Assembly: GCF_032191835.1 (NCBI RefSeq)
Contig: NC_083232.1
Coordinates: 930,001 to 994,000 of the forward strand
DNA: 64,000 nt
From: Heteronotia binoei
Lineage: Eukaryota
Reading direction: 5' to 3'
Shown here piece after piece: positions 19,386 through 64,000 of this stretch. A model generated the notes under the pieces. The model worked only from the letters and a program-made list of their open reading frames with translations. It made no database searches and was not told the DNA's origin. Both the position numbers and the translations under genes were made by a program. Numbering within the stretch: position 1 is the stretch's first letter; the number at the start of each line of letters is the position of its first letter.

Positions 19386-20364
19386 AGCCTAGCAACAGTG
19401 ATCCATGCAATGGTCACCTCAAGGTTGGATTACTGTAATGCCCTCTACATGAGGCTGCCTCTGTGCCGAACCCGGAAGCTGCAGCTGGTGCAGAACTGTT
19501 ATTAGGGCTCCCGAAGTGGGAGCACATACAGCCGGGGCTGCGTGGACTGCACTGTCTGCCAGTTGTATATCGGGTTCGTTACAAAGTGCTGGTTATCACC
19601 TTTAAAGCCCTATATGGTCGAGGACCTGCCTATCTGAAGGACTGTCTCTGAGGTCAGCGGGGAAGAACCAACTGACTATCCCTGGGCCGAAGGAGGCAAA
19701 ACTACAGAACACCCGTATACGAGCCTTCTCTATTGCAGCACCACACCTATGGAACCAGCTCCCGGAAGAAGTGCGGGCCCTGCGGAGCCTTGAACAGTTC
19801 CGCAGGGCCTGCAAGACCATCTTTTTTAGGATGGCCTTTACCTAACCGAACGACTGTTGGATTCGCCTCAAGTGACTCTGCCATAATATTTACACCTAGA
19901 AGAAGAAGAAGAAGATATTGGATTTATATCCCGCCCTCCACTCCGAAGAGTCTCAGAGCGGCTCACAATCTCCTTTACCTTCCTCCCCCACAACAGACAC
20001 CCTGTGAGGTGGGTGGGGCTGGAGAGGGCTCTCACAGCAGCTGCCCTTTCAAGGACAACCTCTGCCAGAGCTATGGCTGACCCAAGGCCATTCCAGCAGG
20101 TGCAAGTGGAGGAGTGGGGAATCAAACCCGGTTCTCCCAGATAAGAGTCCGCACACTTAACCACTACACCAAACTGGCTCTCCTAACCTAACAGAATAGC
20201 ACCAGAAATGTTAATTTTAAAATTGGAATGTTTTTAGGTGAATGTGTTTTTAAAATTTGTTGTATAATTTATTGTATGGATCGAGATGCTGCTAGCCGCC
20301 CTGAACCTGCTTCGGCGGGGAGGGCGGGATATAAATAAAATATTATTATATTATTATTATTATT
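19386..20364 (+). mobile_element. L2 LINE 3' fragment, interrupted by a SINE
   Basis: Translation LATVIHAMVTSRLDYCNALYM..LHCLPVVYRVRYKVLVITFKALYG, typical of L2 ORF2; (TTA)n tail at 20340-20364. Confidence 0.85.
19897..20182 (-). mobile_element. CORE-SINE (Squam3-like), single-headed copy
   Basis: Head gagccagtttggtgtagtgg, MIR-like cacctcacagggtgtctgttgtggg, (TCT)n tail. Confidence 0.8.
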
Positions 20365-26699: not shown

Positions 26700-28405
26700 G
26701 AAGAAACAAGGGGCTGCTGAGAAGAAACAGGGCAGAGAGGCTGAGGCCTTCCCCTGAGAAGAACCTCAGAAGAGCCCTGCTGGGTCAGACTAGTGAGGGT
26801 CCATCCAGTCCAGCCTCCTGTCTCACACAATGGTCAACCAGTTCCTCTGGAGGGCCAACAACAGGGCAGAGAGGCCAAGGTCTTCCCCTGAGAACATCAG
26901 AAGAGCCCTGCTGGATCAGACCAGCGAGGGTCCATCTAGTCCAGCCTCCTGTCTCACACAGTGGCCAGCCAGTTCCTCTGGAGGGCCAACAACAGGGCAG
27001 AGAGGCCGAGGCCTTCATAAGAACATCAGAGGAGCCCTGCTGGATCAGACCAGCGAGGGTCCATCTAGTCCAGCCTCCTGTCTCACACAGCAGCCAACCA
27101 GTTCCTCAGGAGGGCCAACAACAGGGCAGAGGCGCTGAGGCCTTCCCCTGAGAAGATCACTAGAAGAACTCTGCTGGGTCAGACCAGAGAGGATCTATCT
27201 AGTCCAGCCTCCTGTCTCACACAGCAGCCAAGCAGTTCCTCTGGAGCGCCAACAGCAGGTCAGAGAGGCTGAGGCCTTCCCCCAAGAACAACCTCAGAAG
27301 AGCCCTGCTGGATCAGACCAGTGAGGGTCCATCTACTCAAGCATCCTGTCTCACAGAGTGCCCAGTCAGTTCCTCTGGAGGGCCCACAACAGGGCTGAGA
27401 GGCTGAGGCCTTCCGCTGAGAAGAACCTCAGAAGAGCCCTGCTGGATCAGACCAGGGAGGGTCCATCTAGTCCAGCCTCCTGTCTCACACAGTGGCCAGC
27501 CAGTTCCTCTGGAGGGCCAACAACAGGGGAGAGAGGCCAAGGCCTTCCCCTGAGAAGAACATCAGAAGAGCCCTGCTGGGTCAGACCAGGGAGGGTCCAT
27601 CTAGTCCAGCCTCCTGTCTTACACAGTTGCCAACCAGTTCCTCTGGAGGGCCAACAACAGGGCAGAGAGGCCAAGGTCTTCCCCTGAGAACATCAGAAGA
27701 GCCCTGCTGGATCAGACCAGTGGGGGTCCATCTAGTCCAGCATCCTGTCTCACAGAGTGCCCAGCCAGTTCCTCTGGAGGGCCCACAACAGGGCAGAGAG
27801 GCTAAGGCCTTCTGCTGAGAAGAACCTCAGAAGAGCCCTGCTGGATCAGACCAGGGAGGGTCCATCTAGTCCAGCCTCCTGTCTCACACAGTGGCCAGCC
27901 AGTTCCTCTGGAGGGCCAACAACAGGGCAGAGAGGCCAAGGCCTTCCCCTGAGAAGAACATCAGAAGAGCCCTGCTGGGTCAGACCAGGGAGGGTCCATC
28001 TAGTCCAGCCTCCTGTCTCACACAGTGGCCAGCCAGTTCCTCTGGAGGGCCAACAACAGGGCAGAGAGGCTGAGGCCTTCCCCTCATGTTGCCTCCTGGC
28101 TCTGGGATTCAGAGGATTAGTACCTCAGAATGTGGAAGTTCCCCTCATGTGACATGTGGAAGCCACCACGGCTATCAGTCACAGATAGACTTATCCTCCA
28201 TGAATCTATCTAACTCCCTTTCAAAGCTGTGGCCATCACTGCATCCTCTGGCAGTGAATTCCACATTTTAACCACCCTTTGTGTCAAGTAATATTCCCTT
28301 TTGTCTGTCTTGGCCTCCTGCCCATCAGTTTCACTGGCTGCCAGACTCTTCAGCCTTTCCTCCTTGGGAAGGTCCTCCAGCCTCTGAATCGTCCTGGTGA
28401 CGCTC
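26700..28405 (-). repeat. Tandem array, about 10 x 131-134 bp, of a CR1 3' terminus plus an extended CR1 copy (28085-28405)
   Basis: agaagagccctgctggatcagacc recurs every ~133 bp from 26768 to 27964; lies in a RARRES2 intron. Confidence 0.92.
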
Positions 28406-28584: not shown

Positions 28585-28770
28585 GAGGGGCCGTGGCACA
28601 GGGGAAGAGCCTCTGCTTGGCATGCGGAAGGTCTCAGGTTCAATCCCCGACATCTCCAGTTTAAAACCATACAGTAGGTAATGTGAGACCCCGGCAGTTG
28701 CAGTCAGTCTGAATAGACAAGACTGACTTTGAAGGGCTTTTGAGGGTCTGGTTCAGCATAAGGCAGCTTC
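28585..28770 (+). mobile_element. tRNA-derived SINE
   Basis: Degenerate head and gtctgaatagacaagactgactttga body. Confidence 0.65.
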
Positions 28771-29439: not shown

Positions 29440-29985
29440 TTGGACCAAATTATTTCTTCTTGTTTTCTGTGGCCCCGGAAGGTAGGATCAGAACCAACGG
29501 GTTGAAATGAAATCAAGAGTTTCCGGCTCAACATTAGGAAGAACTTCCTGACTGTTAGAGCGGTTCCTCAGTGGGACAGGCTTCCTCCTTGGGAGGTGGT
29601 GGGCTCTCCTTCCGTGGAAGGTTTTTAAACAGAAGCTAGATGGCCATCTGACAGCAATGAGGATCCTGTGAATTTAGGGGGAAGTGTTTGTGAGTTTCCT
29701 GCATTGTGCAGGGGGTTGGACTAGATGACCCTGAAGGTCCCTTCCAACTCTAGGATTCTATGCACTTCCTGGACATTAGAGCGGTTCCTCAGTGGAACAG
29801 GCTTCCTCGGGAGGTGGTGGGCTCTCCTTCCTTGGAGGTTTTTACATAGAGGCTAGATGGCCATCTGACAGCATTGAGGATCCTGTGAATTTAGGGGGAG
29901 GTGTTTGTGAGTTTCCTGCATTGTGCAGGGGGTTGGACTAGATGACCCTGGAGGTCCCTTCCAACTCTAGGATTCTGTGATTCTG
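29440..29985 (+). mobile_element. Two tandem CR1 3' ends
   Basis: Repeated agagcggttcctcagtgg..ttccaactctaggattct. Confidence 0.8.
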
Positions 29986-33814: not shown

Positions 33815-34450
33815 GAGGGGGAGGGATTGGTGAGTTTCCTGCATTGTGCAGGGGGGTGGACTAGATGACCCTGGAGGTACCTTCCAACACTTCTATGATT
33901 CTAACAGGCTTCCTCCTTGGGAGGTGGTGGGCTCTCCTTCCTTGGAGGTTTCTAAACAGAGGCTAGATGGCCGTCTGACAGCAATGAGGATCCTGTGGAT
34001 TGAGGGGGAGGTGTTTGTGAGTTTCCTGCATTGTGCAGGGGGTTGGACTAGATGACCCTGGAGGACTCTTCCAACTCTATGAATCTATGATTCCTGACCA
34101 TTAGAGTAATTCCTCAGTGGAACAGGCTTCCTCAGGAGGTGGTGGGTTCTCCTCCCTTGGAAGTTTTTAAACAAACAGAGGCTAGATGGCCATCTGACAG
34201 CAATGAAGATCCTGTGAATTTAGGGGGAGGTATTTGTGAGTTTAGAGTGGTTCCTCAGCGGAACAGGCTTCCTCCTTGGGAGGTGGTGGGCTCTCCTTCC
34301 TTGGAGGTTTTGAAACAGAGGCTAGATGGCCATCTGACAGCAATGAGGATCCTGTGAGTTTAGGGGGAGGTGTTTGTGAGTTTCCTGCATTGTGCAGGGG
34401 GTTGGACTAGATGACCCTGGAGGTCCCTTCCAACTCTATGATTCTGTGAC
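33815..34450 (+). mobile_element. Four head-to-tail CR1 3' fragments of unequal length
   Basis: Repeated aacaggcttcctccttgggaggtggtggg..gattct segments. Confidence 0.8.
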
Positions 34451-37859: not shown

Positions 37860-39240
37860 CCACAGACAGGTACTGGTGGCCAAAAAAAACCCCAGGTGCC
37901 ACCAGGAGGTTCATCAGTGGGGCCAGGGCACCAGAAGCCTTCCCACTCTTGCCCCCCAAAGCACCAAGAATACAGAGCATCATTGCCTCAGACATAAGGA
38001 CATAAGAGAAGCCATGTTGGATCAGGCCAGTGGCTCATCCAATCCAACACTCTGTGTCACATAAGGACATAAGAGAAGCCATGTTGGATCAGGCCAGTGG
38101 CCCATCCAGTCCAACACTCTGTGTCACATAAGAACATAAGAGAAGCCCTGTTGGATCAGGCCAATGGCCCATCCAGTCCAGCACTCTGTGTCACATAAGA
38201 ACATAAGAGAAGCCCTGTTGGATCAGGCCAATGGCCCATCCAGTCCAACACTCTGTGTCACATAAGAACATAAGAGAAGCCCTGTTGGATCAGGCCAGTG
38301 GCCCCTCCAGTCCAACACTCTGTGTCACATAAGAACATAAGAGAAGCCATGTTGGATCAGGCCAATGGCCCCTCCAGTCCAACACTCTGTGTCACATAAG
38401 AACATAAGAGAAGCCCTGTTGGATCAGGCCAGTGGCCCCTCCAGTCCAACACTCTGTGTCACATAAGAACATAAGAGAAGCCCTGTTGGATCAGGCCAGT
38501 GGCCCCTCCAGTCCAACACTCTGTGTCACATAAGAACATAAGAGAAGCCATGTTGGATCAGGCCAGTGGCCCCTCCAGTCCAACACTCTGTGTCACATAA
38601 GAACATAAGAGAAGCCATGTTGGATCAGGCCAATGGCCCATCCAGTCCAACACTCTGTGTCACATAAGAACATAAGAGAAGCCCTGTTGGATCAGGCCAA
38701 TGGCCCCTCCAGTCCAACACTCTGTGTCACATAAGAACATAAGAGAAGCCCTGTTGGATCAGGCCAGTGGCCCATCCAGTCCAACACTCTGTGTCACATA
38801 AGAACATAAGAGAAGCCCTGTTGGATCAGGCCAATGGCCCCTCCAGTCCAACACTCTGTGTCACATAAGAACATAAGAGAAGCCCTGTTGGATCAGGCCA
38901 GTGGCCCCTCCAGTCCAACACTCTGTGTCACATAAGAACATAAGAGAAGCCATGTTGGATCAGGCCAATGGCCCATCCAGTCCAACACTCTGTGTCACAT
39001 AAGAACATAAGAGAAGCCATGTTGGATCAGGCCAGTGGCCCATCCAGTCCAACACTCTGTGTCACATAAGAACATAAGAGAAGCCCTGTTGGATCAGGCC
39101 AGTGGCCCATCCAGTCCAACACTCTGTGTCACACAGGGGCCAAAAAAGCCCAGGTGCCATCAGGAGGTCCCCCAGTGGGTCAGGACACCAGAAGCCCTCC
39201 TACTGTTGCCCCCTCCCCCCCCCAGCACCAAGACTACTGG
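37860..39240 (-). repeat. Tandem array, about 17 x 67 bp, of a CR1 3' terminus (units 37990-39135) with flanking longer CR1 pieces
   Basis: cataagaacataagagaagcc..ccaacactctgtgtca with a 67-bp period; inside LRRC61 intron 1. Confidence 0.95.
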
Positions 39241-41730: not shown

Positions 41731-42395
41731 GGATATTCTGGCATTGGAGAAAGGGCAGAAAAGGGCAACTAGAAGGATTCAAGGGTTGCAACACTTTCCC
41801 TAGGAAGAAAGGTTGAAACGCTTGGGGCTCTTTAGCTTGGAGAAACGTCGACTGTGGGGTGACATGATAGAGGTTTACAAGATTATGCATGGGATGGAGA
41901 AGATAGAGAAAGAAGTACTTTTCTCCCTTTCTCACAATACAAGAACTCGTGGGCATTCAATGAAATTGCTGAGGTTAAAACGGATAAAAGGAAGTCTTTC
42001 TTCACCCAAAGGGTGATTAACTTGTGGAATTCACTGCCACAGGAGGAGCAGAGGTCCACCAGTGGCTATTAGCCATAGCATATTATTGGAACTGTCTGGG
42101 GCAGTGATGCTCTGTATTCTTGGTGCTTCATGGGGGGGGGAGCAAACTGGAAGGGCTTCTAGACCCACTTATGAACCTTCTGATGGCACTTGGGGGGGGG
42201 GGTTGCCCCTGTGTGACACAGTGTTGGACTGGAGGGGCCATTGGCCTGATCCAACATGGCTTCTCTTATGTTCTTATGTCTGGAGCAGTGATGCTCTGTA
42301 TTCTTGGTACTTGGGAGGGGGAGTGAGAGGGCTTCTAGTGTCCTGGCCCCACTGGTGGACCTCCTGATTGCACCTGGGGGTTTTTGGCCTGTGTG
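41625..42395 (+). mobile_element. CR1 ORF2 C-terminus and 3' UTR; its 5' ~100 bp lie inside the CpG island
   Basis: QFWAPHRKK / KDILALEKGQKRATRRI / EERLKRLGLFSLEKRRLWGDMIEVYKIMHG. Confidence 0.85.
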
Positions 42396-45345
42396 ACACA
42401 GAGTGTTGGACTGGAAGGGCCATTGGCCTGATCCAACAGGGCTTCTCTTATGTTCTTATGTGACACAGAGTGTTGGACTGGAGGGGCCATTGGCCTGATC
42501 CAAAATGGCTTCTTTTCTTTTCTTATGTGACACAGAGTGTTGGACTGGAGGGACCATTGGCCTGATCCAACAGGGCTTCTCTTATGTGACACAGAGTGTT
42601 GGACTGGAGGGGCCATTGGCCTGATCCAACATGGCTTCTCTTATGTGTCACAGAGTGTTGGACTGGAGGGGCCATTGGCCTGATCCAACAGGGCTTCTCT
42701 TATGTGTCACAGAGTGTTGGACTGGAGGGGCCATTGGCCTGATCCAACATGGCTTCTCTTATGTGACACAGAGTGTTGGACTGGAGGGGCCATTGGCCTG
42801 ATCCAACATGGCTTCTCTTATGTGACACAGAGTGTTGGACTGAAGGGGCCACTGACCTGATCCAACAGGGCTTCTCTTATGTGACACAGAGTGTTGGACT
42901 GGATGGGCCACTGGCCTGATCCAACAGGGCTTCTCTTATGTTCTTATGTGACACAGAGTGTTGGACTGGATGGGCCATTGGCCTGATCCAACAGGGCTTT
43001 CTCTTATGTTCTTATGTGACACAGAGTGTTGGACTGGAAGGGCCATTGGCCTGATCCAACATGGCTTCTCTTATGTGACACAGAGTGTTGGACTGGAGGG
43101 GCCATTGGCCTGATCCAACAGGGCTTCTCTTATGTTCTTATGTGACACAGAGTGTTGGACTGGAAGGGCCATTGGCCTGATCCAACATGGCTTCTCTTAT
43201 GTTCTTATGTGACACAGAGTGTTGGACTGGATGGGCCACTGGCCTGATCCAACAGGGCTTCTCTTATGTTCTTATGTGACACAGAGTGTTGGACTGGATG
43301 GGCCATTGGCCTGATCCAACAGGGCTTTCTCTTATGTTCTTATGTGACACAGAGTGTTGGACTGGAGGGGCCATTGGCCTGATCCAACAGGGCTTCTCTT
43401 ATGTTCTTATGTGACACAGAGTGTTGGACTGGATGGGCCATTGGCCTGATCCAACAGGGCTTTCTCTTATGTTCTTATGTGACACAGAGTGTTGGACTGG
43501 AAGGGCCATTGGCCTGATCCAACATGGCTTCTCTTATGTGACACAGAGTGTTGGACTGGAAGGGCCATTGGCCTGATCCAACAGGGCTTCTCTTATGTTC
43601 TTATGTGACACAGAGTGTTGGACTGGAGGGGCCATTGGCCTGATCCAAAATGGCTTCTTTTCTTTTCTTATGTGACACAGAGTGTTGGACTGGAGGGACC
43701 ATTGGCCTGATCCAACAGGGCTTCTCTTATGTGACACAGAGTGTTGGACTGGAGGGGCCATTGGCCTGATCCAACATGGCTTCTCTTATGTGTCACAGAG
43801 TGTTGGACTGGAGGGGCCATTGGCCTGATCCAACAGGGCTTCTCTTATGTGACACAGAGTGTTGGACTGGATGGGCCACTGGCCTGATCCAACAGGGCTT
43901 CTCTTATGTTCTTATGTGACACAGAGTGTTGGACTGGATGGGCCATTGGCCTGATCCAACAGGGCTTTCTCTTATGTTTTTATGTGACACAGAGTGTTGG
44001 ACTGGAAGGGCCATTGGCCTGATCCAACATGGCTTCTCTTATGTGACACAGAGTGTTGGACTGGAGGGGCCATTGGCCTGATCCAACAGGGCTTCTCTTA
44101 TGTTCTTATGTGACACAGAGTGTTGGACTGGAAGGGCCATTGGCCTGATCCAACATGGCTTCTCTTATGTTCTTATGTGACACAGAGTGTTGGACTGGAT
44201 GGGCCACTGGCCTGATCCAACAGGGCTTCTCTTATGTTCTTATGTGACACAGAGTGTTGGACTGGATGGGCCATTGGCCTGATCCAACAGGGCTTTCTCT
44301 TATGTTCTTATGTGACACAGAGTGTTGGACTGGAGGGGCCATTGGCCTGATCCAACAGGGCTTCTCTTATGTTCTTATGTGACACAGAGTGTTGGACTGG
44401 ATGGGCCATTGGCCTGATCCAACAGGGCTTTCTCTTATGTTCTTATGTGACACAGAGTGTTGGACTGGAAGGGCCATTGGCCTGATCCAACATGGCTTCT
44501 CTTATGTGACACAGAGTGTTGGACTGGAAGGGCCATTGGCCTGATCCAACATGGCTTCTCTTATGTTCTTATGTGACACAGAGTGTTGGACTGGATGGGC
44601 CATTGGCCTGATCCAACAGGGCTTCTCTTATGTTCTTATGTGACACAGAGTGTTGGACTGGAAGGGCCATTGGCCTGATCCAACATGGCTTCTCTTATGT
44701 GACACAGAGTGTTGGACTGGAAGGGCCATTGGCCTGATCCAACATGGCTTCTCTTATGTGACACAGAGTGTTGGACTGGAAGGGCCATTGGCCTGATCCA
44801 ACATGGCTTCTCTTATGTTCTTATGTGACACAGAGTGTTGGACTGGATGGGCCATTGGCCTGATCCAACAGGGCTTCTCTTATGTTCTTATGTGACACAG
44901 AGTGTTGGACTGGAAGGGCCATTGGCCTGATCCAACATGGCTTCTCTTATGTGACACAGAGTGTTGGACTGGATGGGCCACTGGCCTGATCCAACAGGGC
45001 TTCTCTTATGTTCTTATGTGACACAGAGTGTTGGACTGGATGGGCCATTGGCCTGATCCAACAGGGCTTCTCTTATGTTCTTATGTGACACAGAGTGTTG
45101 GACTGGAGGGGCCACTGGCCTGATCCAACAGGGCTTCTCTTATGTTCTTATGTGACACAGAGTGTTGGACTGGAAGGGCCACTGGCCTGATCCAACAGGG
45201 CTTCTCTTATGTGACACAGAGTGCTGGACTGGATGGGCAATTGGCCTGATCCAACAGGGCTTCTCTTATGTTCTTATGTGACACAGAGTGTTGGACTGGA
45301 GGGGCCATTGGCCTAATCCAACAGGGCTTCTCTTATGTTCTTATG
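42395..45345 (+). repeat. Tandem array, about 45-47 units of 59 and 67 bp, of a CR1 3' terminus
   Basis: tgacacagagtgttggactgga..ttctcttatg(ttcttatg); reverse complement of the 37990-39135 array. Confidence 0.95.
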
Positions 45346-45561: not shown

Positions 45562-45838
45562 AGGAGAGAAGAACGGCATAAATGGCTTCAGGTTCCCCAC
45601 TGGGGAAAAAGAAGCAGACTGCAGTTTTATACCCCGCCCTTCTCTCTGAATCAGAGACTCAGAGCGGCTTACAATCTCCTTTATCTTCTTCCCCCACAAG
45701 ACACCCTGTGAGGTGGGTGGGGCTGAGAGTGGTCTCACAGCAGCTGCCCTTTCAAGGACAACTCCTGCGAGAGAATCAACCCCGGTTCTCCCAGATAAGA
45801 GTCCGCACACTTAACCACTACACCAAACTGGCTCTCTG
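45562..45838 (-). mobile_element. CORE-SINE (Squam3-like) with internal deletion
   Basis: Head and tail present; part of the CORE region is missing. Confidence 0.75.
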
Positions 45839-46480: not shown

Positions 46481-48405
46481 TCACTGCCAGGCTGCCTCAA
46501 AAGCGATGGGGAGAAGGAGCGGCTGCTGCTCTGGCGGGGGGTGCTGCTGAGGCAAAGCCATCTGGGGCAGGGGAGGGGGCCACGCGGGAGCACAGGCCAC
46601 GGGGGCGCTGGTGTGAGTGCGCTCGTGGCGCAGGAGGTGCGTCTTGCGGCTGAAGCTGCGGGCACAGTGGGTGCAGATGTACGGGCGCAGGCCAGTGTGC
46701 ACTGCTTGGTGCCGCACCAAATTGGTCTTGGAGCTGAAGCGGCGTGGGCACTGGGCGCAGGCGTGAGGACGAAGGCCCGTGTGCACAGCTTCGTGCCGGG
46801 CCAGGTGGGACTTCCGGCTGAACGCCCGGCCACACAGCGGGCAGGCAAAGGGACGCTGTCCAGCGTGGGATTTGATGTGCGCCAGCAAGCTGGCCCGAGT
46901 GCTAAAGGTGCGGCCGCACTGAGCGCAAGAGAATGGCCGCTCGGCCGAGTGCTGGTTGCGCCGATGTCTCTGCAGGTGTCGCTTGTGGGCAAAGCACCGT
47001 CCGCACTCGCCACAGGCAAAGGGGCGCTGCCCAGCGTGGCCACCGCACTGGTGGGCAGCCAAGCCAGCCCGATGGGCAAAGCTTCTTTCGCAGTGTGGGC
47101 AAGCATACGGCAGAAGGCCCATGTGCCCTCGCAGGTGCGCTGTCAGGTGGCGCTTATCGCTGAAGCCCCTCCCGCACTCGGCGCAAGAAAAAGGGCGCCC
47201 GCCCTCAGCGTGGAGCCGCTGGTGGGAGGCCAGATTCTTCCTCCAGGCAAAGGCCTTCCCGCAGTCGGAGCACAGGAAGGGCTTCTCTTCGGGCAACGGG
47301 CAGGAGCCGGCCTCCTCCTCCGCCTCCTCCGGTTCTGTCTTGCTAACCTGTTCCATGCAAAGCGTGCTGTTCCCGGCCTCCCCCGGCACCCCACACGGCG
47401 TGCCCCGGGGCCCCTGCTCAGGACACACTAGGCCAGCAGCCAGGGTCTCTCTCTGCCGGGGGAGGCCCATGCAAGGGACTCGGCCCAGTTCTTGTTCAGT
47501 CGGAACTTTAAAAAGGGCCGGACCCATAAACGGTTCTGGCGGTCCCATGCAGGAGGCGAGAACCTGCCCCGGGTCTGCCTCTTCCCTGTACGGCGGGGCC
47601 GCTTGCCCCAGTTCCCGCTGGTCCCTGCAGGGGGCAACAGTCTGGCCTAGTTCTGGGAAAGGGGCTGGGGGCTGGCCAAGTCCCGTTTGCTCCCTGTGGG
47701 GCTCTGTGTCCTGCCCAGGCTGAAGTTCGTGGCCGTAGGGCTCTGGCCTCTGCCCCGGCTCCGCGTGGTCCCTGCAGGCTGCGTTCCCTCCCTCGTGGAG
47801 CTGCTGGTGCCGCAAGAGGTGCCGGCGATGCACAAAGCTCCGGGAGCAGAGGGGGCAGGCGTGGGGGCGCTCCCCGGTGTGGGTCAGCTGGTGGCGCACC
47901 AGGTGGGTCTTCTTGCGGAAGGTCTTGGGGCAGCGGTCGCAGGGGAAGGGCCTCTCCCCCGTGTGCACGCGCTCGTGGGAGCCCAGGTGGATCTTCTGGG
48001 AGAAGCGGCGGCCGCAGTGGGTGCAGGCAAATGGGCGCTCTCCAGTGTGCACCCGGGCGTGCCGGGTCAGGTGGGCCTTCTTCCCAAAGGCCTTGCCGCA
48101 CTGAGAGCAAGCAAAGGGGCGTGGGCGGGGGTCTCCGTGGCCCCCCTCCAGTGGGGCTCCGGGATGCTCACACCGGGGACAGCCCAGCGGCTTCTCCTCG
48201 TTCAACATCTGCCACTGCTGCAGCGCCAGGCCCGAGAGCTCGCCCAGCCCTCCGTGGGCACCGTACCCTTCCCCGGCATGCAGGCCCTCCGACTTGCAGA
48301 CGCCCCCTACAGGCAGCCCCGATAGCAGCACCTCTGCGCTCAGCCCGGCCGGCCACTCCGAGTAGTCTTCAGCTTCGACCTTCACCGTCCGGATCAGCCA
48401 CTCAC
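46481..48405 (-). CDS. ZNF467: Zinc finger protein 467, last exon (12 C2H2 fingers, 4+8)
   Basis: GEWLIRTVKVE, KKAHLTRH, SQKIHLGSH, RKKTHLVRH, WRKNLASH, SRKSHL, SSKTNLVRH and SRKTHL match recalled human ZNF467; acceptor ccccacag| at 48406/48405, phase 1. Confidence 0.92.
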
Positions 48406-48579: not shown

Positions 48580-48930
48580 GTCATAGAATCCTAGAGTTGG
48601 AAGGGACCTCCAGGGTCATCTAGTCCAACCCCCCCTGCACAATGCAGGAAACTCACAAACACCTCCCCCCAAATTCACAGGATCCTCATTGCTATCAGAC
48701 GGCCATCTAGCCTCTGTTTCAAAACCTTCAAGGAAGGAGAGCCCACCATGTCCCGAAGAATCCTAGAGTGGGAAGGAACCTCCAGGGTCATCTAGTCCAA
48801 CCCCCCCCTGCACAATGCAGGAAACTCACAAACATCTCCCCCTAAATTCACAGGATCCTCATTGCTGTCAGAGGGCCATCCAGTCTCTGTTTAAAAACCT
48901 CCAAGGAAGGAGAGCCCCCCACCTCCTGAG
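48580..48930 (-). mobile_element. Two tandem CR1 3' ends
   Basis: Same family as the 100-bp array. Confidence 0.8.
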
Positions 48931-53019: not shown

Positions 53020-53920
53020 GGAGAAGCCATGTTGGATCAGGCCAATGGCCCATCCAGCCCAACACTCTGGGTCACACAGTGGTCAAAAAACCAGCCACCA
53101 TCAGGAGGTCCACCAGTGGGGCCAGGACACTAGAAGAAGAAGACTGCAGATTTATACCCCGCCCTTCTCTCTGAATCAGAGACTCAGAGCGGCTTACAAT
53201 CTCCTTTATCTTCTTCCCCCCAAACAGACACCCTGTGAGGTGGGTGGGGCTGAGAGGACTCTCACAGCAGCTGCCCTTTCAAGGGCAACTCCTGCGAGAG
53301 CTACGGCTGACCCAAGGCTATTCCAGCAGCTGCAAGTGGAGGAGTGGGGAATCAAGCCCGGTTCTCCCAGATAAGAGTCTGCACACTTAACCACCACACC
53401 AAACTGGCTCTTGCCCTCGCACTGTTGCCACTCCCCAAGCACCAAGAAGACAGAGCATCACTGCCCCAGACAGCGTTCCCTCTACACCTAGTGGCTATTA
53501 GCCACAGATAGACCTCTGCTCCAGATGTTAATCCTATCCCTTCTTGAAACTGTCTGTGCTTGTAACTACCACCACTTCCTGTGGCACTGAGTTCCACATG
53601 TTAATCACCCTTTGGGTGAAGGACTTCCTTTTATCTGTTTAAACCTACTGCTCAGCAATTTCATCGAGTGCCCACGAGTTCTTGTATTGTGAGAAAGGGA
53701 GAAAAGTCCTTCTTTCACTATCTTCTCCATCCCATGCATAATTTTGTGAACCTCTATCATGCCACCCCTCAGACATCATTCCTCCAAGCTAAAGAGCCCT
53801 ACCCTCTTTGACCTTCCATCCCCTTAATTATTTAGTTGCCCTTTTCTGCACCTTTTGCAATGCTTTAATGTCTCTTTTGAGGTGCAATGACCAGAACAGT
53901 ACAGAGTATTCCTAAATGGG
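53020..53920 (-). mobile_element. CR1 3' region interrupted by a single-headed CORE-SINE (53125-53410)
   Basis: CR1 sequence ggacactagaag|..|gccctcgcactg is split by the SINE. Confidence 0.75.
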
Positions 53921-54101: not shown

Positions 54102-54960
54102 AGAAGAAGAAGAAGATATTGGATTTATATCCCGCCCTCCACTCCGAAGAGTCTCAGAGCGGCTCACAGTCTCCTTTCCCTTCCTCCCCCACAACAGACA
54201 CCCTGTGAGGTAGATGAAGATACTGGATTTATATCCCGCCCTCCACTCCGAAGAGTCTCAGAGCGGCTCACAATCTCCTTTCCCTTCCTCCCCCAACAAC
54301 AGACACCCTGTGAGGTAGGTGGGGCTGAGAGGGCTCTCCCAGCAGCTGCCCTTTCAAGGACAACCTCTGCCAGACCTTTGGCAGACCCAAGGTCATGCCA
54401 GCAGCTGCAAGTGTTGGAGTGGGGAATCAAACCCGGTTCTCCCAGATAAGAGTCCATGCACTTAACCTCTACACCAAACTGGCTCTCTATTAGAGCTATG
54501 GCTGACCCAAGGCCATTCCAGCAGGTGCAAGTGGAGGAGTGGAGAATCAAACCCGGTTCTCCCAGATAAGAGTCCATGCACTTAACCTCTACACCAAACT
54601 GGCTCTCTATTAGAGCTATGGCTGACCCAAGGCCATTCCAGCAGCTGCAAGTGTTGGAGTGGGGAATCAAACCCGGTTCTCCCAGATAAGAGTCCATGCA
54701 CTTAACCTCTACACCAAACTGGCTCTCTATTAGAGCTATGGCTGACCCAAGGCCATGCCAGCAGGTGCAAGTGGAGGAGTGGGGAATCAAACCCGGTTCT
54801 CCCAGATAAGAGTCCGTGCACTTAACCTCTACACCAAACTGGCTCTCTATTAGAGCTATGGCTGACCCAAGGCCATTCCAGCAGCTGCAAGTGGAGGAGT
54901 GGGGAATCAAACCTGGTTCTCCCAGATAAGAGTCCGCACACTTAACCACTACACCAAACC
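54102..54960 (-). mobile_element. Multi-headed CORE-SINE: 5 x 120-bp heads, body, duplicated tail
   Basis: 120-bp period ctctctattagagctatggc..ctacaccaaac; one body; (TCT)n tail. Confidence 0.88.
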
Positions 54961-55439
54961 AGAGGTGGTTGGCCGTTGCCTTCCTCTGCAAAGCAACCCT
55001 GGGCTTACTTCCTTGGTGGTCCCCCTCACAGGTACTGATCAGGGCTGACCCCGTTTAGCTTCTGAGATCTGACGGGATTGGGCTAGCCTGGGCCATCCAG
55101 GAGAGGGAAGACCCAGGCTCTGAGAGAGACCCAGGTTCAAATCCCCACTCTGCTTGGGTGGCCTTGTGCCATTCACACAGTCAGCTGAACCTACCTCACA
55201 GGGCAGCTGTTGTGAGGACAGAATGGAAGAAAGCGGAAGGGCGTGAGCCACTTTGGGTCCTCAGAGGGGAGAAAGGAAGGAAGAGGGAAAGGCAATGAAT
55301 ACATAAGTGCAAGAAGATGATCAGTGCATCCTAATGAAGATCTTATTTTGCTGTCTTTCTGACTGCCCTGCCAGGCCCAGATTCTGAAGCACAAGCCCTC
55401 CCGGGGAGGGGGGAGTTCTGGCAGCTTCTCCAGAAAGAG

Positions 55440-56600
55440 CCCCAGGGCTGGCGCGGCTTGCAGGCTCACCCCTCCCAGGCTCCCGATGCCCTGCAGCCCC
55501 CACGGCAATGCTCAGCACACAAACAAACCCTGGCAGGAAGCGCTGCAGGTGCGCCCCAAGCCCAGCGGATGGTCCCGGCTCCGGGGAATAAAGGGCCCGT
55601 GCGCAGCAGCGCTTGGATGCTGAGGAGCCTCCTTGTGGAGGGGCAGTCTACCTTCAGCTGCCTGCCGAAGAGGGCTCCTGCTGCTGGGGAGCTCGCCCCC
55701 GGGGGCAGCGGCTGGACGGGGCGGCCCTTCTCAGGCTCCCTCCGTCCTGGGCGGACACAGCCCTGCCGCCGCCGCCTGGGGCCAGCCTCCCCCCCCCCCC
55801 GCCCGCACATCGGGGCCAGCCGGCCTCCCCGACGGCACCGCGCTCCGCTCCTCCCCGCCAGGCAGGCGGGCTAGACGGGGAGGGCGCCCGCGGTCAGCTT
55901 AGCCTGGCTGCGGCTCCCCCCTGCCCGAGCCGGCCTTCTGCCCACGGTGGCCCCGCTCCCCGAGCATGTGCAGAGTGCCCCTCCCGCCCTTACCTGCGCG
56001 GCAGCCCCCACGGCCATGCGGGGCCCCGAGAGGGAGGGAGGCAGGCAGGCAAGAGGGACCCCCCAGCCGCCGTCGATGGTGCCCGGAGAGGAGGGGGCCT
56101 CCTGCGCCGCCGGCCTCGATCCCCCCCCCCCTCCTCCTCCTGCTGCTTCGCCCGCTGCGGCCCGCCCGATCGTGCACGCGGGGCTGCCCCGCTCCAGCCC
56201 CGTCCCGTCCCGTCCGGCCGCCAGGTCCTGCCTGCAATTGCAAAGCCGCCCGCCTTGCCTGCCCGGCCCTGGCTCCCCCCCGCGAACTACACTTCCCAGC
56301 AGCCCACGGAAGGAAGGGGCGGGGCAGCGGCCGCGCTCCCGTCGCCCTGGCAACGGCTCGCCCCTGCCCGGAGACCCCGCCCAGGCCTTGCCAACCTCCC
56401 GGGATTGCCCTTCAGCCCCGCGCTTGGGGAGAAAAGCGCCGCTTGGCTTGCAGGGGGTTGCTCCGTGGCGGCCAGCAGCACGCCTTGCCACCCCCCCCCC
56501 CCCAAGCTCCTGGAACTCCCCAGGCCAGAGTTGGCAGCCCTGGCGCAAGCCTGAGACTTTCAGCGCCCTACCTCGCGGGGCTGTTGCCAGGACAGAATGG
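55440..56600 (-). promoter_or_regulatory. ZNF467: CpG-island promoter of ZNF467
   Basis: ZNF143 motif ACTACActTCCCAGCAGCC 56286-56304; X-box GTCGCCCTGGCAAC 56341-56354; GC boxes. Confidence 0.75.
55994..56017 (-). CDS. ZNF467: ZNF467, first coding exon segment (MAVGAAAQ)
   Basis: ATG 56017, donor CAG|gtaagg, phase 0, in frame with VPV of the KRAB-A exon; total CDS 2178 nt, 725 aa. Confidence 0.65.
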
Positions 56601-56643
56601 CCCTCCAACAGAGACTAAGGATTCCTGGGCTGCCATCACTCCT

Positions 56644-58892
56644 CCAGTTTGGTGTAGTGGTGAAGTGCAGGACTCTTATCTGGGAAAACGGGTTTGATTC
56701 CCCACTCCTCCCCTTGCAGCTGCTGGAATGGCCTTGGGTCAGCCATAGCTCTAATAGAGAGCCTGTTGGGTGTAGTGGTTAAATGCACGGACTCTTATCT
56801 GGGAGAACCGGGTTTGATTCCCCACTCCTCCACTTGCACCTGCTGGAATGGCCTTGGGTCAGCCATAGCTCTAATAGAGAGCCAGTTGGGTGTAGTGGTT
56901 AAGTGCATGGACTCTTATTTGGGAGAACAGGGTTTGATTCCCCCCTCCTCCACTTGCACCTGCTGGAATGGCCTTGGGTCAGCCATAGCTCTAATAGGGA
57001 GCCAGTTGGGTGTAGTGGTTAAGTGCATGGACTCTTATTTGGGAGAACAGGGTTTGATTCCCCACTCCTCCACTCGCAACTGCTGGAATGGCCTTGGGTC
57101 AGCCAGAGCTCTAATAGAGAGCCTGTTGGGTGTAGTGGTTAAGTGTGTGCACTCTTATCTGGGAGAACCGGGTTTGATTCCCCCCTCCTCCACTTGCACC
57201 TGCTGGAATGGCCTTGGGTCAGCCATAGCTCTAATAGGGAGCCAGTTGGGTGTACTGGTTAAGTGCACGGACTCTTATCTGGAGAACCGGGTTTGATTCC
57301 CCACTCCTCCACTCGCAGCTGCTGGAATGGCCTTGGGTCAGCCAGAGCTCTAATAGAGAGCAAGTTGGGTGTAGTGGTTAAGTGTGAGGACTCTGGGAGA
57401 ACCGGGTTTGATTGCTCACTCCTCCACTTGCAGCTGCTGGAATGGCCTTGGGTCAGCCAGAGCTCTAATAGAGAGCCAGTTGGGTGTAGTGGTTAAGTGC
57501 GAGGACTCTGGGAGAACCGGGTTTGATTGCTCACTCCTCCACTTGCAGCTGCTGGAATGGCCTTGGGTCAGCCAGAGCTCTAATAGAGAGCCAGTTGGGT
57601 GTAGTGGTTAAGTGCGCGGACTCTTATCTGGGAGAACTGGGTTTGATTCCCCACTCCTCCACTCGCAGCTGCTGGAATGGCCTTGGGTCAGCCATAGCTC
57701 TAATAGAGAGTCAGTTGCGTGTAGTGGTTAAATGCACAGACTCTTATCTGGGAGAACCGGGTTTGATTCCCCCCTCCTCCACTAGCACCTGCTGGAATGG
57801 CCTTGGGTCAGCCATAGCTCTAATAGAGAGTCAGTTGGGTGTAGTGGTTAAGTGCAAGGACTCTTATCTGGGAGAACCGGGTTTGATTCTCCACTCCTCC
57901 ACTTGCACCTGCTGGAATGGTCTTGGGTCAGCCACAGCTCTAATAGACAGCCAGTTGGGTGTAGTGGTTAAGTGTGCGGACTCTTATCTGGGAGAACTGG
58001 GTTTGATTCCCCACTCCTCCACTCGCAGCTGCTGGAATGGCCTTGGGTCAGCCATAGCTCTAGTAGAGAGCCAGTTGGGTGTAGAGGTTGAGTGCACGGA
58101 CTCTTATCTGGGAGAACCGGGTTTGATTCCCCACTCCTCCACTTGCAGCTGCTGGAATGGCCTTGGGTCAGCCATAGCTCTAATAGGGAGCCAGTTTGGT
58201 GTAGTGGTTAAGTGTGCGGACTCTTATCTGGGGGAACCGGGTTTGATTCCCCACTCCTCCACTTGCACCTGCTGGAATGGCCTTGGGTCAGCCAGAGCTC
58301 TAATAGAGAGCCAGTTGGGTGTAGAGGTTGAGTGCACAGACTCTTATCTGGGAGAACCGGGTTTGATTCCCCACTCCTCCACTTGCACCTGCTGGAATGG
58401 CCTTGGGTCAGCCATAGCTCTAATAGAGAGCCAGTCTGGTGTAGTGGTTAAATGTGCGGACTCTTATCTGGGAGAACTGGGTTTGATTCCCCACTCCTCC
58501 ACTTGCACCTCCTGGAATGGCCTTGGGTCAGCCATAGCTCTAATAGAGAGCCAGTTTGGTGTAGTGGTTAAGTGTGCAGACTCTTATCAGGGAGAACCAG
58601 GTTTGATTCCCCACTCCAATACTTGCAGCTGCTGGAATGGACTTGGGTCAGCTATAGTTCTTGCAGAGATTGTCCTTGAAAGGGCAGCTGCTGTGAGAGC
58701 CCTCTCGGCCCCACCCACCTCACAGGGTGTCTGTTGTTGGGGGAGAAGATATAAGCTGCTCTGAGACTTTGTCCTTGAAAAGGCAGCTGCTGTGAGAGTC
58801 CTCTCAGCCCCACCCACCTCACAGGGTGTCTGTTGTGGTGGTGGGGGGGCGGAGATTCAGAGAATAGGGCAGGATATAAATCCAATATCTTC
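56644..58892 (+). mobile_element. Multi-headed CORE-SINE: about 17 x 120-bp heads plus body and tail
   Basis: Exact 120-bp period (two 116-bp and one 119-bp variants) from 56644 to about 58640, then one body and tataaatccaatatcttcttc. Confidence 0.92.
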
Positions 58893-61712
58893 TTCTTTTG
58901 CCCAGAGCCAGGCTGACTGGCCACCTGTGACACTGGGCCATAACAATAGAATAAACATTATTGGTGGTATCTGCAACACAGGGACTTCAGAGGTTTGAAT
59001 TGCCCCTTATTGCTTCATGTTTCGGCTCTGCTCTCCTCATAGCAAAAAATGGAGGATCTTTGCAACCTTTGGGCAGATCCAGTCAGACGGCATCCTGCCC
59101 CCTTCTTGAGCGGATCTTTGATCCGCAAAATAACAGGAAGGCCAAAGTGCTGGGACGGGATGCTGCTGGCCTTGTGGATTTGGAAGCTGAAACTGAACAC
59201 TTCCCCTCCATCTTTACCTGTGTTCTTCCCAGAGGGGGAGTTAACTGCAGCCGCCCCAGGGACCTGGAAAGAGAGACAGTGCCTGGCTTCTGGCACCCAT
59301 CCAAGTCAGGCCCTCGTGGGGTAAAAGTTGCCACACCAGAGTCAACCGGCTGGCCAGCTCTGCAATATGGGAAGGGGAGAAGCCTTTGCCACTCCCCCCC
59401 CCCCCCAACTGGAGAAGCTGCTGCTCCTTCCCTCCTCCTTCAAGAGGTGTTTTCCAGGACAGCAGGGGGGCGGGAGCAGCAATGCCTTTGTCTCTGGGGG
59501 GTGGTGAGGGTGGCTGCGTATGGCAGCTCCAGTGGCATCCCTGCTCAGTTGCCCCTGGCAGTGCACAGGTGAAACCATGAAGCTGCCTTCTGCTGAATCA
59601 GACTCCCTCCCTCTCCGTGGCCCATCATGGCCGGTCTTGTCTGCTCTGGCTGGCAGCAGCTCTGCAGGGCTCAGGCAGACAGGGCCGGTCCTAGATTAGC
59701 TGGCATCCTCGACAAGGCTAACTTTTGCCCCTTCCCCCCGCACTGATAACCAGATGAATTGTGGGGGGAATGAAAAGCACAACAATTGCAATTGCTCCTT
59801 GATCTGGATAGGCCAGGTCACTGAGTCATGTGGGGGGCACCCAGTTTGGAGGCCCAAGGAGGCTGGCGCTCTAGGCAGAGCCAGCCCTGCAGGCAGAGGA
59901 GGCCTTCCACACCCCCTCCTGCAAGAACCTTTAACTGGGGATGCTGAAGGCTGAGCTCTTCATGCCAAGCAGAGGCTCTTCCGCCTTCCTCTCACAGTCT
60001 GACCACAGAGCCTTCTGGCCCTTGAACGTGCTGGGAAAGTTCCCTGCCAGCCACTTCCTTGTGCGCGCCTAGATCCTGTTTTCAGGCCTGTGCCGGATGG
60101 GCCCTTCCAGCTCATGCCAGCCTCTGCCCCACAGCCTCTCCCCAAAGGGGAACTTGAAGCCTCACAGAGTCTGAAATGGAGTAAGGCCTGTTGTGAAGAC
60201 AAATACAGTGGGCTCTTGAGGGAGGATCTGGAGGAGTGCCCTCCCCCCCTTGCTGTCGTCCTACTCAAGTGAAGGCGTTCACTCCTCCCCCCACACACAC
60301 ATCTCAAGGGAAGCTGATCTCTGCCATCTGGATAGCAGTTGTAATTCTGAGTGATCTCCAGCCCTCACCTGGAGATTGGCAAGAGTGGTTCCCCAGGAGG
60401 AAATCGCATTATACCTGTCTGAGGTCCCACCCTTCCTCAAACCCCACCTTCTCTAGGCTCCACCCCTTCAATCTTCAGGAATTTCTTAACCTGGAGTTGG
60501 CAGGTCTGCAGCCTCTAAATAGGAAAAGAACCATCTTTCTTCACGGGGTGGGGGGACCAAATCAGCTTGCATCATTCTCCTCTTCCCTCTCCCCCCTTTG
60601 ATCTCAACACCAATCCTGTGAGGCTTCCCCATCTCCGTCTCAGGCACCCGTCCTGGGGTGGGGCTGAAAAGGGACTACCTTGCCTCAGTTGGGTCATTGG
60701 AGCCTCTAGGGACAGTTCAGGCTGGATTGGATCTTTGCAATTCTGTCAATAAATGGAAGCATTAGAAGGCGAGAGGGAGGGGTTGTGAGTAGGATTCCTG
60801 CTCTCTCCCAGTTGTGGGCAGGGGATACCAAATACAGCCAGATCCTGTAGCCAGATCCAGGCTGGAGATCTGGGGGTGGAGGCTGGGGAGGGCGGGGGAT
60901 GCAGTGCCCTGGAATCCACCCTCCAAAGTGTCCGCTCTCTCCAGGTGTCCGCTCTCTCCTCAGATCCAGGCACACACAGGCTCATACCCAGAAGGAAACT
61001 TTGTTGGTCTTAAGGGAGCAAGAAGTTTGTTCCGTTGCTTCAGGCCAACACAGCAACCCACCTGAATCTATCTTTTTCTCCAGGGGAACTGACTTCTGTA
61101 GTCTGGAGAAGAGCTGGAATTTCGGAGGATCCCCAGGTCCCACCTGGAGGCCGCTGGCATCCTGTGCTGGGACTGATGAATGCCGCGACTCCTTTGGGCA
61201 AAGGGCTGTGGAAATGGGTCACCCGAAGAGGCCTGCTTTTTGTTTCTGGACAGAGCAGGATGGAGCGAGTGATCTTTGGAGGCCCAAGCAGCACTTTGGG
61301 AGCTGCCCTGTGAGTGACGCCTGTTCTTTTGGGAGATCTTAGGAATTCTTGGGGGGGGGGGGATGGAGGGGTGGATTCCAAGCCTTATGAACTCTATCAC
61401 CAAATAAGCCAGGCTTTCTTGGGAGATGGGGGGACCTTGCAGGGGGGGGGCACTCAGCCTGCTGTGGGGCTTGGAATTCTTGGCAGAGATGAGTCGGAGA
61501 CCAGGAAGTGGGGATAAGCAGAGATCCGCCTGGGGAGGGGGACGATGTGGGAGCCAGCAGGGGCTCTCAGAGCATAAAGCAGCCAGCCGCGTCAGCCCCC
61601 AAAGCTCTGAGAGACGCATCCTAGTTACCTGCAAACAGGTCCGGGCCACTGCGAGGGGGCAGAGTGGCCCCCTCTCCTCCCCTCAAACCTGCGTTGCTGG
61701 GAAGGGATACAT

Positions 61713-62620
61713 GTCCAGTCTGGTGGAGTGGTTAAGTGCAGGACTCTTATCTGGGAGAACCGGCTTTGATTCCCCACTCCTCCACTTGCACCTCCTGGAA
61801 TGGCCTTGGGTTAGCTATAGCTATAGCAGTGGTTGTCCTTGAAAGGGCAGCTGCTGAGAGCCCTCTCAGCCCCACCCACCTCACAGGGTGTCTGTTGTGG
61901 GGGGAGAAGATATAGGAGATTGTGAGCTGCTCTGAGTCTCTGATTCAGGGAGAAGGGCAGGGTATAAATCTGCAGTCTTCTTCTTCCAGTTTGGTGTAGT
62001 GGTTAAGTTTGCGGACTCTTATCTGGGAGAACCGGGTTTGCTTCCCCACTCCTCAACTTGCACCTGCTGAAATGGCCTTGGGTCAGCCATTGCTCTAATA
62101 GAGAGCCAGTTTGGTGTAGTGGTGAAGTGCATGGACTCTTATCTGGGAGAACCGGGTTTGATTCCCCACTCCTCCACTTGCACCTGCTGGAATGGCCTTG
62201 GGTCAGCCATAGCTCTAATAGAGAGCCAGTTTGGTGTAGTGGTGAAGTGCATGGACTCTTATCTGGGAGAACCGGGTTTGATTCCCCACTCCTCCACTTG
62301 CACCTGCTGGAATGGCCTTGGGGCAGCCATAGCTCTAATAGAGAGCCAGTTTGGTGTAGTGGTTAAGTGTGCAGACTCTTATCTGGGAGAACCGGGTTTG
62401 ATTCCCCACTCCTCCACTTGCACCTGCTGAGATGGCCTTAGATCAGCCATAGCTCTGGCAGAGGTTGTCCTTGAAAGGGCAGCTGCTGTGAGAGGCCTCT
62501 CGGCCCCACCCACCTCACAGGGCGTCTGTTGTGGGGGTAGAAGATAAAGGAGATTGTGAGCCGCTCTGAGTCTCTGATTCAGGGAGAAGGGCGGGGTATA
62601 AATCTGCAATTCTTCTTCTC
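61713..62620 (+). mobile_element. Single-headed CORE-SINE (61713-61986) directly followed by a 4-headed copy (61985-62620)
   Basis: Heads near 61985, 62105, 62225 and 62345, then body and tail. Confidence 0.88.
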
Positions 62621-63282
62621 ATCACAGCATCCCCAAGAGCGAGGAGGCAGCAGCCAGGAGGACTCCCCGTTCCTCTCCTTTTGTGTCTGTTTGCTCTCCC
62701 CATAAATCAATGGGGGCCCAGGAGGAATGAAAAGAGCTGGTTACGGGACGGGGACTGGGAAGGGCCATCCAACCAGATCCACCTGCCCCCTCCAAAGACC
62801 GCCTCAAGCAACCCCCCCCCCCCAGTTGCCACCTGCAGAGGGATAATGGCTGATGGGGCTGTGGGAGTGATTGACGTCTCAGTGTTTTGACGCCTGCTTT
62901 GAACGCTCAAGAACGGAGGTGTCCAGAATGCTAAGAAAGAGGATTATTGGGATCACAAAGTTTTAGGCAACTGGGGGAGGTGGTGATCTGGGGCGGGGGG
63001 GGGGGGGGGAGGAGCTTATGAAGAAGCCCTCATGGGGAGGAGAAGGGGCCAACTAGGACCCCCAGCAGCCCCACCTGAGCAGGCACATCTCCTAGCCACA
63101 CAAACCTCCTCCCATCTGGCTGTCCAGGCTCTTTGCCAGCTGCCAGCTCTGGATCCCCTCGGCCTGCTGGGAGGGGAGGAGAAGGCAGGCTCCCACTGAC
63201 TGGCCAGTGCTTGCGTGGCAGAGGCCTGTCCAATCCCAAGACCCCCAGATGTCTCCCAAGACCACTGGTCCTGCAGGACAGA

Positions 63283-63361
63283 TATAAATGCGCCTCCTCC
63301 TCACCTCGCCTGATGTGCTCCCTGGCAGCAGGCACCTGGGGGCCTCTGGGAGCCCCGGCAG
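63283..63361 (+). promoter_or_regulatory. TATA box and short first exon of a plus-strand gene running off the window (SSPO candidate by synteny)
   Basis: TATAAA 63283-63288; perfect donor CAG|GTAAGT at 63361/63362; ATG at 63313 gives MCSLAAGTWGPLGAPA(G), phase 1, but sits at the predicted TSS. Confidence 0.35.
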
Positions 63362-63582
63362 GTAAGTGGAGGGCTGTGCAGGATGGGGGGGAGGGGGGTC
63401 ACTGGGGGGGGGGGTAAGAGCAGACAATGTCTGGAGAGACCCACTTCGTCTCTTGCTCCACGGAGATTCCTTCCAACTGAAGAGTGGATTTCAGCAAGAA
63501 ACAGTGACTCACTCTTCAGCCACCGGTTCTTGCTGAGGGCTCTGGGGTAAAGAAGGCACGGAAGTGGACCTCCAGCAGCAAA

Positions 63583-64000
63583 GCTGGTGTAGTGGTTAAG
63601 TGTGTGGACTCTTATCTGGGAGAACCGGGTTTGATCCCCCACTCCTCCCCTTGCAGCTGCTGGAATGGCCTTGGGTCAGCCGTAGCTCTAATAGAGAGCC
63701 AGTTTGGTGTAGTGGTTAAGTGTGCGGACTCTTATCTGGGAGAACCGGGTTTGATTCCCCACTCCTCCACTTGCACCTGCTGGAATGGCCTTGGGTCAGC
63801 CATAGCTCTAATAGAGAGCCAGTTTGGTGTAGTGGTTAAGTGTGTGGACTCTTCTCTAGGAGAACCGGGTTTGATTCCCCACTCCTCCACTTGCACCTGC
63901 TGGAATGGCCTTGGGTCAGCCAGAGCTCTAATAGAGAGCCAGTTTGGTGTAGTGGTTAAGTGTGCGGACTCTTATCTGGGAGAACCGGGTTTGATTCCCC
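63583..64000 (+). mobile_element. Multi-headed CORE-SINE, at least 4 heads, cut by the window edge
   Basis: Same 120-bp unit and same ctctaatagagagccag junction. Confidence 0.88.

Follow-up and report, generated by a model that had tools for sequence, protein, structure and literature searches.

Head arrays in the Heteronotia binoei window

The window analysed here is a stretch of 64,000 nucleotides from the gecko Heteronotia binoei (NC_083232.1, positions 930,001 to 994,000), and its subject is a short interspersed element (SINE) in which a 120-bp tRNA-like head precedes a body and a (CTT)n tail. Four tandem arrays of the head are present, with 5, 17, 4, and 9 heads, in agreement with the 5, about 17, 4, and at least 4 of the original prediction, and the same AATA junction is found throughout. 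Tandem Repeats Finder gives the arrays a period of 120 with 92–95% matches. The junction 18-mer has 26 matches in the window at two or fewer mismatches, while none of 100 shuffles gives any match.

The first array, on the minus strand (54108–54959), is a Squam3B3-like SINE with five heads (four AATA junctions) and a body, whose last ~107 bp recur once (junction tail→172) ahead of the (CTT)n tail. The second, a Squam3B3-like SINE on the plus strand (56644–58896), has 17 heads (16 junctions), a body with an internal duplication (~233→125), and a tail. The original prediction gave each complete array a single body, but two depart from this: the minus-strand locus through its doubled final ~107 bp, and the 17-head locus through its partly duplicated body. 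The third array (61986–62619, plus) has four heads (three junctions), a body of the CTGCA-type 3′ subtype, and a tail. It is fused tail to head to a single-headed copy (61715–61984, plus), with one base between that copy’s tail and the array’s first head. The fourth, a nine-head copy (63585–64000, plus), shows its first 3.5 heads in the window, and its body and tail finish ~790 bases beyond it (L001, 585–1789). Three further single-headed monomers lie on the minus strand: one of the CGCAG/CTGCAG subtype with no junction (53132–53411), one without consensus positions 64–112 (45609–45836), and a near-consensus copy of the GGCAG subtype (19898–20182). The AATA filler was said to be missing from single-headed copies, and none of the four carries it.

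The promoter boxes of the arrays are intact, and T4, the RNA polymerase III (Pol III) terminator, is nearly absent. As claimed, the sense strand of the window’s elements has none, but one occurs in the fourth array past the window. The B-box-like spelling GGTTTGATTCC is present; it is no array defect but the family norm, found in 39 of 58 monomers and in the published gecko Squam3B/B3 consensus rows. ARAGORN called no head in the window as a tRNA, and the long open reading frames (ORFs) across the arrays are taken as by-products of stop-free repeats.

A working consensus was built from 28 monomers (278 nt, including nine tail bases). Compared by eye with the GjB3 row of gecko Squam3B3, it agrees in its 5′ start, A box, GGTTTGATTCC B box, and the insert after the head. 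In the portions of the published description available, Squam3B3 is 267–271 nt long with a (CTT)n tail, and Squam3 target-site duplications (TSDs) are very few (PMC7983390). A length of ~270 nt, the post-head insert, the (CTT)n tail, and a very low TSD rate are all found here. By the same description, some head positions depart from the GjB3 row, and several 3′ subtypes occur in our element. By these sequence features, the element is a Squam3B3-like SINE.

One junction and its place on the chromosomes

The exact junction 20-mer occurs 1,690 times genome-wide. Four-base fillers with a first letter other than A total 37 (13 GATA and 9 CATA among them) and are mostly one-base variants, and array flanks are unrelated between loci, save for three segmental-duplicate pairs. 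The junction is thus confined neither to this locus nor to segmental duplications, AATA is fixed across loci, and the original prediction’s proposal that the junction arose once and then spread is supported. The four bases, described as filler, are probably not foreign. They align with body positions 117–120, where an older body subtype has CATA (CATAG at 117–121), and 13 copies genome-wide have AATAG followed by body. The junction is best read as position 120 joined to position 1 at an AG/GAG microhomology in an AATAG-type copy.

Segmental duplication was considered as the route of spread and rejected: the flank matches are other repeats at shifted positions, bar the three true duplicate pairs. 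These pairs are inverted (L010/L011, L022/L023, and L101/L114; 98%, 100%, and 96% identical), and array architecture is unchanged within them, which indicates that unit number was stable over that span. One member of each pair was left out of the array counts (the 23/0 tally for C1 excepted), and the array set, after duplicates and one edge case were dropped, has 102 members. At about three junctions per element in this set, there would be several hundred junction-bearing loci. A single AATA junction is found in 45 of the 102 arrays. Divergence from the consensus is 4–5.5% for array units and 5.1% for monomers, and units differ by 6.0% within an array and 7.7% between arrays. Locus-private unit variants are present, pointing to later local growth of arrays. 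That growth, and a few fillers that match other body subtypes (GGCA, CGTA) and so suggest that the break point can recur, are what can be said for each array having arisen independently, by local slippage of a resident head. We find that origin scarcely credible: the fixed filler contradicts it, with AATA in 1,690 junctions versus just 13 AATAG-plus-body copies, and heads are unlinked from their own bodies.

With contig ends treated as chromosome ends, the junction copies have a marked geography. The listing for C1–C4 is taken as complete, because counts in fetched loci equal the listing and other searches do show interior places. On C1, all 35 exact matches (23 loci, two pairs of them duplicates) lie within 13 Mb of an end, and on C2, all 11 junction loci lie within 15 Mb of an end. 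A young-body control gives interior matches for 28 of 51 on C1 and 25 of 42 on C2 (near ends, 23 and 17); the difference in end location has p values of 1e-6 and 3e-4, respectively. Complete listings of three junction variants place 17 of 20, 4 of 8, and 50 of 78 on the left end of C10, and most others near the right end of C15; for the last of these variants, the 50 fall in C10:0.6–8.0 Mb and a further 16 in C15:58.4–65.5 Mb. Adjacent junction pairs number 767, of which 37 are on C1–C9.

The strongest geographic test is a matched pair built on the G12 head. Among 150 copies of G12 with the junction, at least 96 are in C10:0–4.7 Mb (60 loci), and 4 are on C1–C9 among the matches listed. The 76 copies of G12 without the junction include 2 in C10:0–4.7 Mb, 3 in the first 11 Mb of C10, and 39 on C1–C9. 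Unselected 10-kb samples give the same picture: 100 kb from the C10 end hold 11 Squam3 arrays and 12 of other kinds, whereas 270 kb of chromosome interiors hold none and 3, respectively. Junction copies are confined to chromosome ends, mostly two of them, and junction-free heads are found genome-wide.

This distribution bears on the idea that an old two-headed SINE was retrotransposed, its interior copies later collapsing to monomers and its end copies expanding. The 45 arrays with one AATA junction would suit such a dimer, as would the nearness of unit divergence to that of monomers. We regard it as very improbable, since almost every dimer in the interior, where the least recombination is expected, would have had to disappear, and since it leaves unexplained both the two thirds of copies on one end and the diversity of bodies described below. 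The 76 junction-free G12 heads, moreover, would be at the level expected from point mutation.

Heads, bodies, and the route of spread

Eighty-nine of the 102 arrays begin at the SINE 5′ end, 83 finish in a tail, and 71 do both. Together with one shared junction, unrelated flanks, intact promoter boxes, and the near absence of T4, such ends are what might be expected if a Pol III RNA with several heads were inserted whole by the partner long interspersed element (LINE), the route proposed in the original prediction. One array of two heads and six tail-side repeats (L039, 3905–4920) is flanked by an 18-bp TSD with one mismatch. However, intact ends and a TSD are equally expected from a resident monomer that has been converted. 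The tabulation of TSDs turned out to be uninformative, since they are rare in arrays (2/70) and monomers (2/56) alike, as published for Squam3; the shuffled mean is 0.15–0.4. The 5′ starts are not decisive, falling within head positions 13–116 in 12 of 102 arrays versus 22 of 96 tailed junction-free copies.

All body subtypes carry the junction, with counts of 42, 21, 12, and 8 in 83 arrays versus 24, 19, 10, and 5 in 58 monomers. Body distances are 15.2% among 47 simple-body arrays, 15.0% among the 58 monomers, and 15.1% between the two sets (label permutation p 0.36). Close pairs, under 5%, are rarer in arrays (1.1% of 2919 pairs) than in monomers (6.3% of 1578). By body distances, subtypes, and close-pair counts alike, no single or few source lineages are seen for the array bodies. 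Heads, for their part, are poorly tied to the bodies that they precede: the head–body distance correlation is rho 0.52 in monomers, as opposed to 0.08 for the last head and 0.11 for the first head of arrays. In monomers, site 83 shows a link to body type (p 0.0003) that last heads lack (p 0.49, or 0.11 under another definition), and sites 30 and 91 of first heads are linked to the far body type (p 0.01 and 0.04).

First heads also differ from the heads behind them. In the 35 arrays with at least four heads, the 5′ half of the first head differs from inner heads by 9.0%, versus 5.6% among inner heads, and the excess is seen in 26 of 35 loci; a second comparison of outer with inner half-units gives 6.8%, versus 4.4% among the inner ones. 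At the C10 end, 19 of 31 loci have CA at positions 30–31 in post-junction heads, and 1 of 31 has it in the first head; G12 is present at 11 of 31 loci, in 3 of 31 first heads, and in none of 58 monomers. Daughters launched from an inner promoter should carry the CA and G12 alleles in the first head; these are mostly absent, which argues against launch as a multi-headed RNA.

Reads were also consulted, although the cDNA libraries do not distinguish Pol III products from read-through transcripts. Among those aligned to one unit, the first junction base is A in at most 21 of 77 (X13) and 158 of 508 (X14). Junction reads in X13 and X14 are few, run about equally in both directions, and do not pile up at particular starts or ends. 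When junctions lacking an upstream head were sought, with a design efficiency of ~40%, two came up. One is a two-head element that starts inside the junction, in AT-rich DNA in mid-chromosome C5 at ~94.77 Mb (L141, 4450–4825, minus); it has a short microduplication at its start, its second head carries G12, and a clean tail and a TSD are both missing. The other, near the end of C15 (L148, 1128–1511, minus), is a two-head element that starts at head position 107. Both may be 5′-truncated retrocopies or templated insertions, and it is because these two copies begin inside the junction that rare true insertion of junction-bearing pieces is possible. They speak for the RNA route, but at most as a rare side route. 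Retrocopied heads are genome-wide and junction copies are not, no source lineage is found, first heads are monomer-like, and segments with no promoter make arrays too; whole retrotransposition of a multi-headed RNA is therefore an improbable main route, and the original prediction is not sustained on this point. Two marks of a composite SINE that retrotransposes as a unit, namely few source elements and dispersal like that of other SINE copies, are not seen here.

A jump aligner identified further fixed junctions at 114→36 (a 79-bp unit), 234→126, 227→126, and tail→172. These combine freely with AATA in one element, the 79- and 120-bp units interleaving. No fewer than three of the fixed junctions besides AATA, with units of 79, 109, and 107 bp, show the same behaviour, and they differ between chromosome ends. 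Junction type depends on chromosome end (permutation p 5e-5): 14 of 31 elements on the left end of C1 have the 79-bp unit, as opposed to none of 75 on the left end of C10, with one further C10 element having it. Point variants of this unit cluster along chromosomes (32 of 56 neighbours alike versus 19.5 expected), and its T allele is in 0 of 11 on the left end of C1 and 11 of 13 on the right. Three of the other junction units lack any promoter box, and arrays of a 67-bp unit, which belongs to a different repeat family, turn up in 35 sampled places, almost all of them at chromosome ends. It follows that Pol III heads are not needed for arrays to form or spread. Rare junctions are seen only in neighbouring loci of one end (L070/L071/L072, L040/L062, L005/L006, and L144/L146), namely 141→34, tail plus nine bases→34, 153→6, and 202→1. 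They, too, hint at local copying.

We consider it likely that one junction, probably of single origin, was copied from DNA to DNA into resident SINEs on the same chromosome end, with local growth and shrinkage afterwards. A 120-bp head duplication would first have formed at the AG/GAG microhomology, in a copy with AATAG at body positions 117–121. The resulting dimer or array would be homologous to any monomer on both sides of the junction, and a nearby non-allelic copy could thus serve as the template for break repair, placing the junction and donor heads between the resident’s own 5′ end and its own body. This transfer would need no enzyme encoded by the element. Unequal exchange or slippage would then multiply units inside a locus, a step for which the locus-private variants are partial evidence. 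Other fixed junctions, at least three in number (the 79-, 109-, and 107-bp units), are likely moved in this way too, which would give each chromosome end its own junction mix. A possible setting, by analogy, is the telomere bouquet, which holds 66–75% of meiotic break-repair foci in reptiles, geckos included, in the part of the study available (PMC9597255).

Several points weigh against copying of this kind. The conversion route is reached by inference, and no conversion event was directly observed. Within the C10 end, no decay of similarity with distance was found (Mantel rho −0.08, p 0.72, 31 loci), and the similarity of post-junction heads by chromosome end is marginal (p 0.06). First heads, too, show no link between site 83 and the body (p 0.8–1.0), and the three linked head sites were chosen after the fact. 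In raw counts, the CTGCAG 3′ type is commoner in arrays (26/83) than in monomers (11/58). Ordinary edge effects of tandem turnover could also predict divergent outer half-units. In L141 and L148, the upstream head is too short for homology-led conversion. Finally, loci were chosen on exact junction matches, and copies within one array are not independent. Bodies and first heads, for their part, show no similarity by chromosome end (p 0.71 for bodies; 0.24 and 0.54 for first heads).

Two other templates might bring donor heads to resident SINEs. Extrachromosomal circles of head units, excised from one array and recombining into nearby SINEs, would explain the same geography and the mosaic anatomy, and arrays with interleaved 120- and 79-bp units would fit repeated uptake. 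Circles have been put forward beside conversion for the Rsp-like satellite of Drosophila (PMC7403614, available in part). Nevertheless, confinement to one end would suit contact between chromosomes better than a diffusible circle, our analysis gave no evidence for circles here, and we judge them unlikely. Complementary DNA of a multi-headed transcript might instead recombine into resident SINEs, an RNA-templated conversion favoured where breaks are frequent. Mosaic anatomy, diverse bodies, and end bias would all be accounted for; still, a diffusible template should not yield junction mixes or point variants specific to an end, and the 109- and 107-bp units have no promoter of their own. This is improbable in our view, and DNA-to-DNA copying between chromosomal SINEs is preferred to both.

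It is tempting to go further, and we lean slightly towards regarding the junction as a selfish allele that homes, with no endonuclease, into resident SINEs across a 10-Mb chromosome end. Each end would keep its own junction set, the dispersed family would serve as a network of landing sites from which satellites arise at hundreds of loci, and a few pieces would escape as true insertions. How one short satellite unit reaches hundreds of loci is an old open question, and no route is tested in the available part of the paper on SINE-derived satellites (PMC10702118). A marked junction, junction-free controls, and end-specific alleles make the route testable here, as monomer versus empty site. If the proposal is true, exchange between non-allelic SINE copies can reach a high intensity within the bounds of chromosome-end domains, with consequences for the use of SINEs as homoplasy-free markers and for age estimates in squamates.

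Described relatives and other features of the window

The original prediction noted that SINE-derived satellites have been reported in squamates, and for geckos they are indeed described. The sSat3 satellites are tandem arrays of Squam3 parts, biased to chromosome ends, and their authors, in the text available, found no true dimeric Squam SINE (PMC10702118). As in sSat3, partial SINE copies stand in tandem before a longer terminal unit that runs to the SINE end, short loci are many and dispersed, ends are favoured, and one genome holds several unit types. Published units span 70–290 nt; ours is 120 nt, the last one extends through the body to the tail, and the subtelomeric bias is present. The working cut-off of that paper asks for four or more middle monomers; the 17- and 9-head loci reach it, whereas the 5- and 4-head loci fall below it. 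The 120-nt unit differs in length from the head-type units described (~150–151 nt; ~150 nt for Gja2 and Ppi2), and 71 of 102 arrays retain both ends of the SINE, a minor form in the sSat3 paper. The accessible text of that paper does not trace one junction across loci, test body ancestry, or report end-specific mixes, and the word “conversion” appears solely in a reference title (PMC10702118). The arrays belong to the SINE-derived satellites, and within gecko sSat3 they apparently represent a new variant with a 120-bp unit.

The closest described process, by analogy, is the spread of the Rsp-like satellite into 1.688 clusters on the Drosophila X, for which interlocus conversion or circles were proposed (PMC7403614, again in part). 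There, one microhomology junction recurs at many loci, resident homologous repeats are the landing sites, and the junction-adjacent repeat is discordant. Here, one junction, apparently at a short microhomology, is likewise shared, and junction-adjacent units are discordant with the resident repeat. Unlike the Drosophila case as described, the donor and its landing site come from a single retroposon family, at hundreds of loci confined to chromosome ends, and our comparison was made in a single genome, whereas the Drosophila study used synteny with relatives. In the available account of Alu–Alu gene conversion (PMC8230782), part of a SINE is likewise replaced after insertion by another copy, and hybrids result, but subfamily identity changes and no arrays form; here, a structural junction would be carried and a tandem array seeded. 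The literature searched, which covered few subscription journals, yielded no description of a conversion route with junction sets specific to chromosome ends.

Repeated promoter-bearing units before one body and tail are also a feature of Alu dimers and of the monomer arrays of rodent L1 5′ untranslated regions. Those retroposons spread whole from source elements to sites across the genome; descent from few sources and such dispersal were both tested for in the gecko arrays, and neither was found. Alu is named as a dimeric retroposon in the text of PMC10702118 that was available.

Several other repeats occupy the window. Arrays of 67/59-bp units, two of them with 17 and 46 copies, lie at 37992–39133, 42392–45345, and 14694–14814; the 67-bp unit resembles what we take to be the 3′ end of a CR1-type LINE. 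More tandem arrays, with units of 100, 134, 217, 140, and 173 bp, are at 17512–18931, 26726–28084, 29543–29976, 34101–34383, and 48585–48921, and they seem to be fragments of other interspersed repeats; 11 sampled arrays contain relatives of the 134-bp type. ARAGORN calls tRNAs for Thr, Pro, Pro, and Ala at 11411–11921 and 28587–28658. The Pro calls form a tandem pair of 134 bp; they resemble the heads of a further tRNA-derived SINE, at a guess Squam2.

Repeats with an 84-bp period, presumably those typical of C2H2 zinc-finger exons, lie within long minus-strand ORFs at 8087–8571 and 46623–46822. Between the first two head arrays, a CpG-rich island extends from 55340 to 56620, and both arrays point away from it. 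It is probably a gene promoter flanked by two head arrays, and near 56283–56305 it contains what we take to be a ZNF143-like motif.

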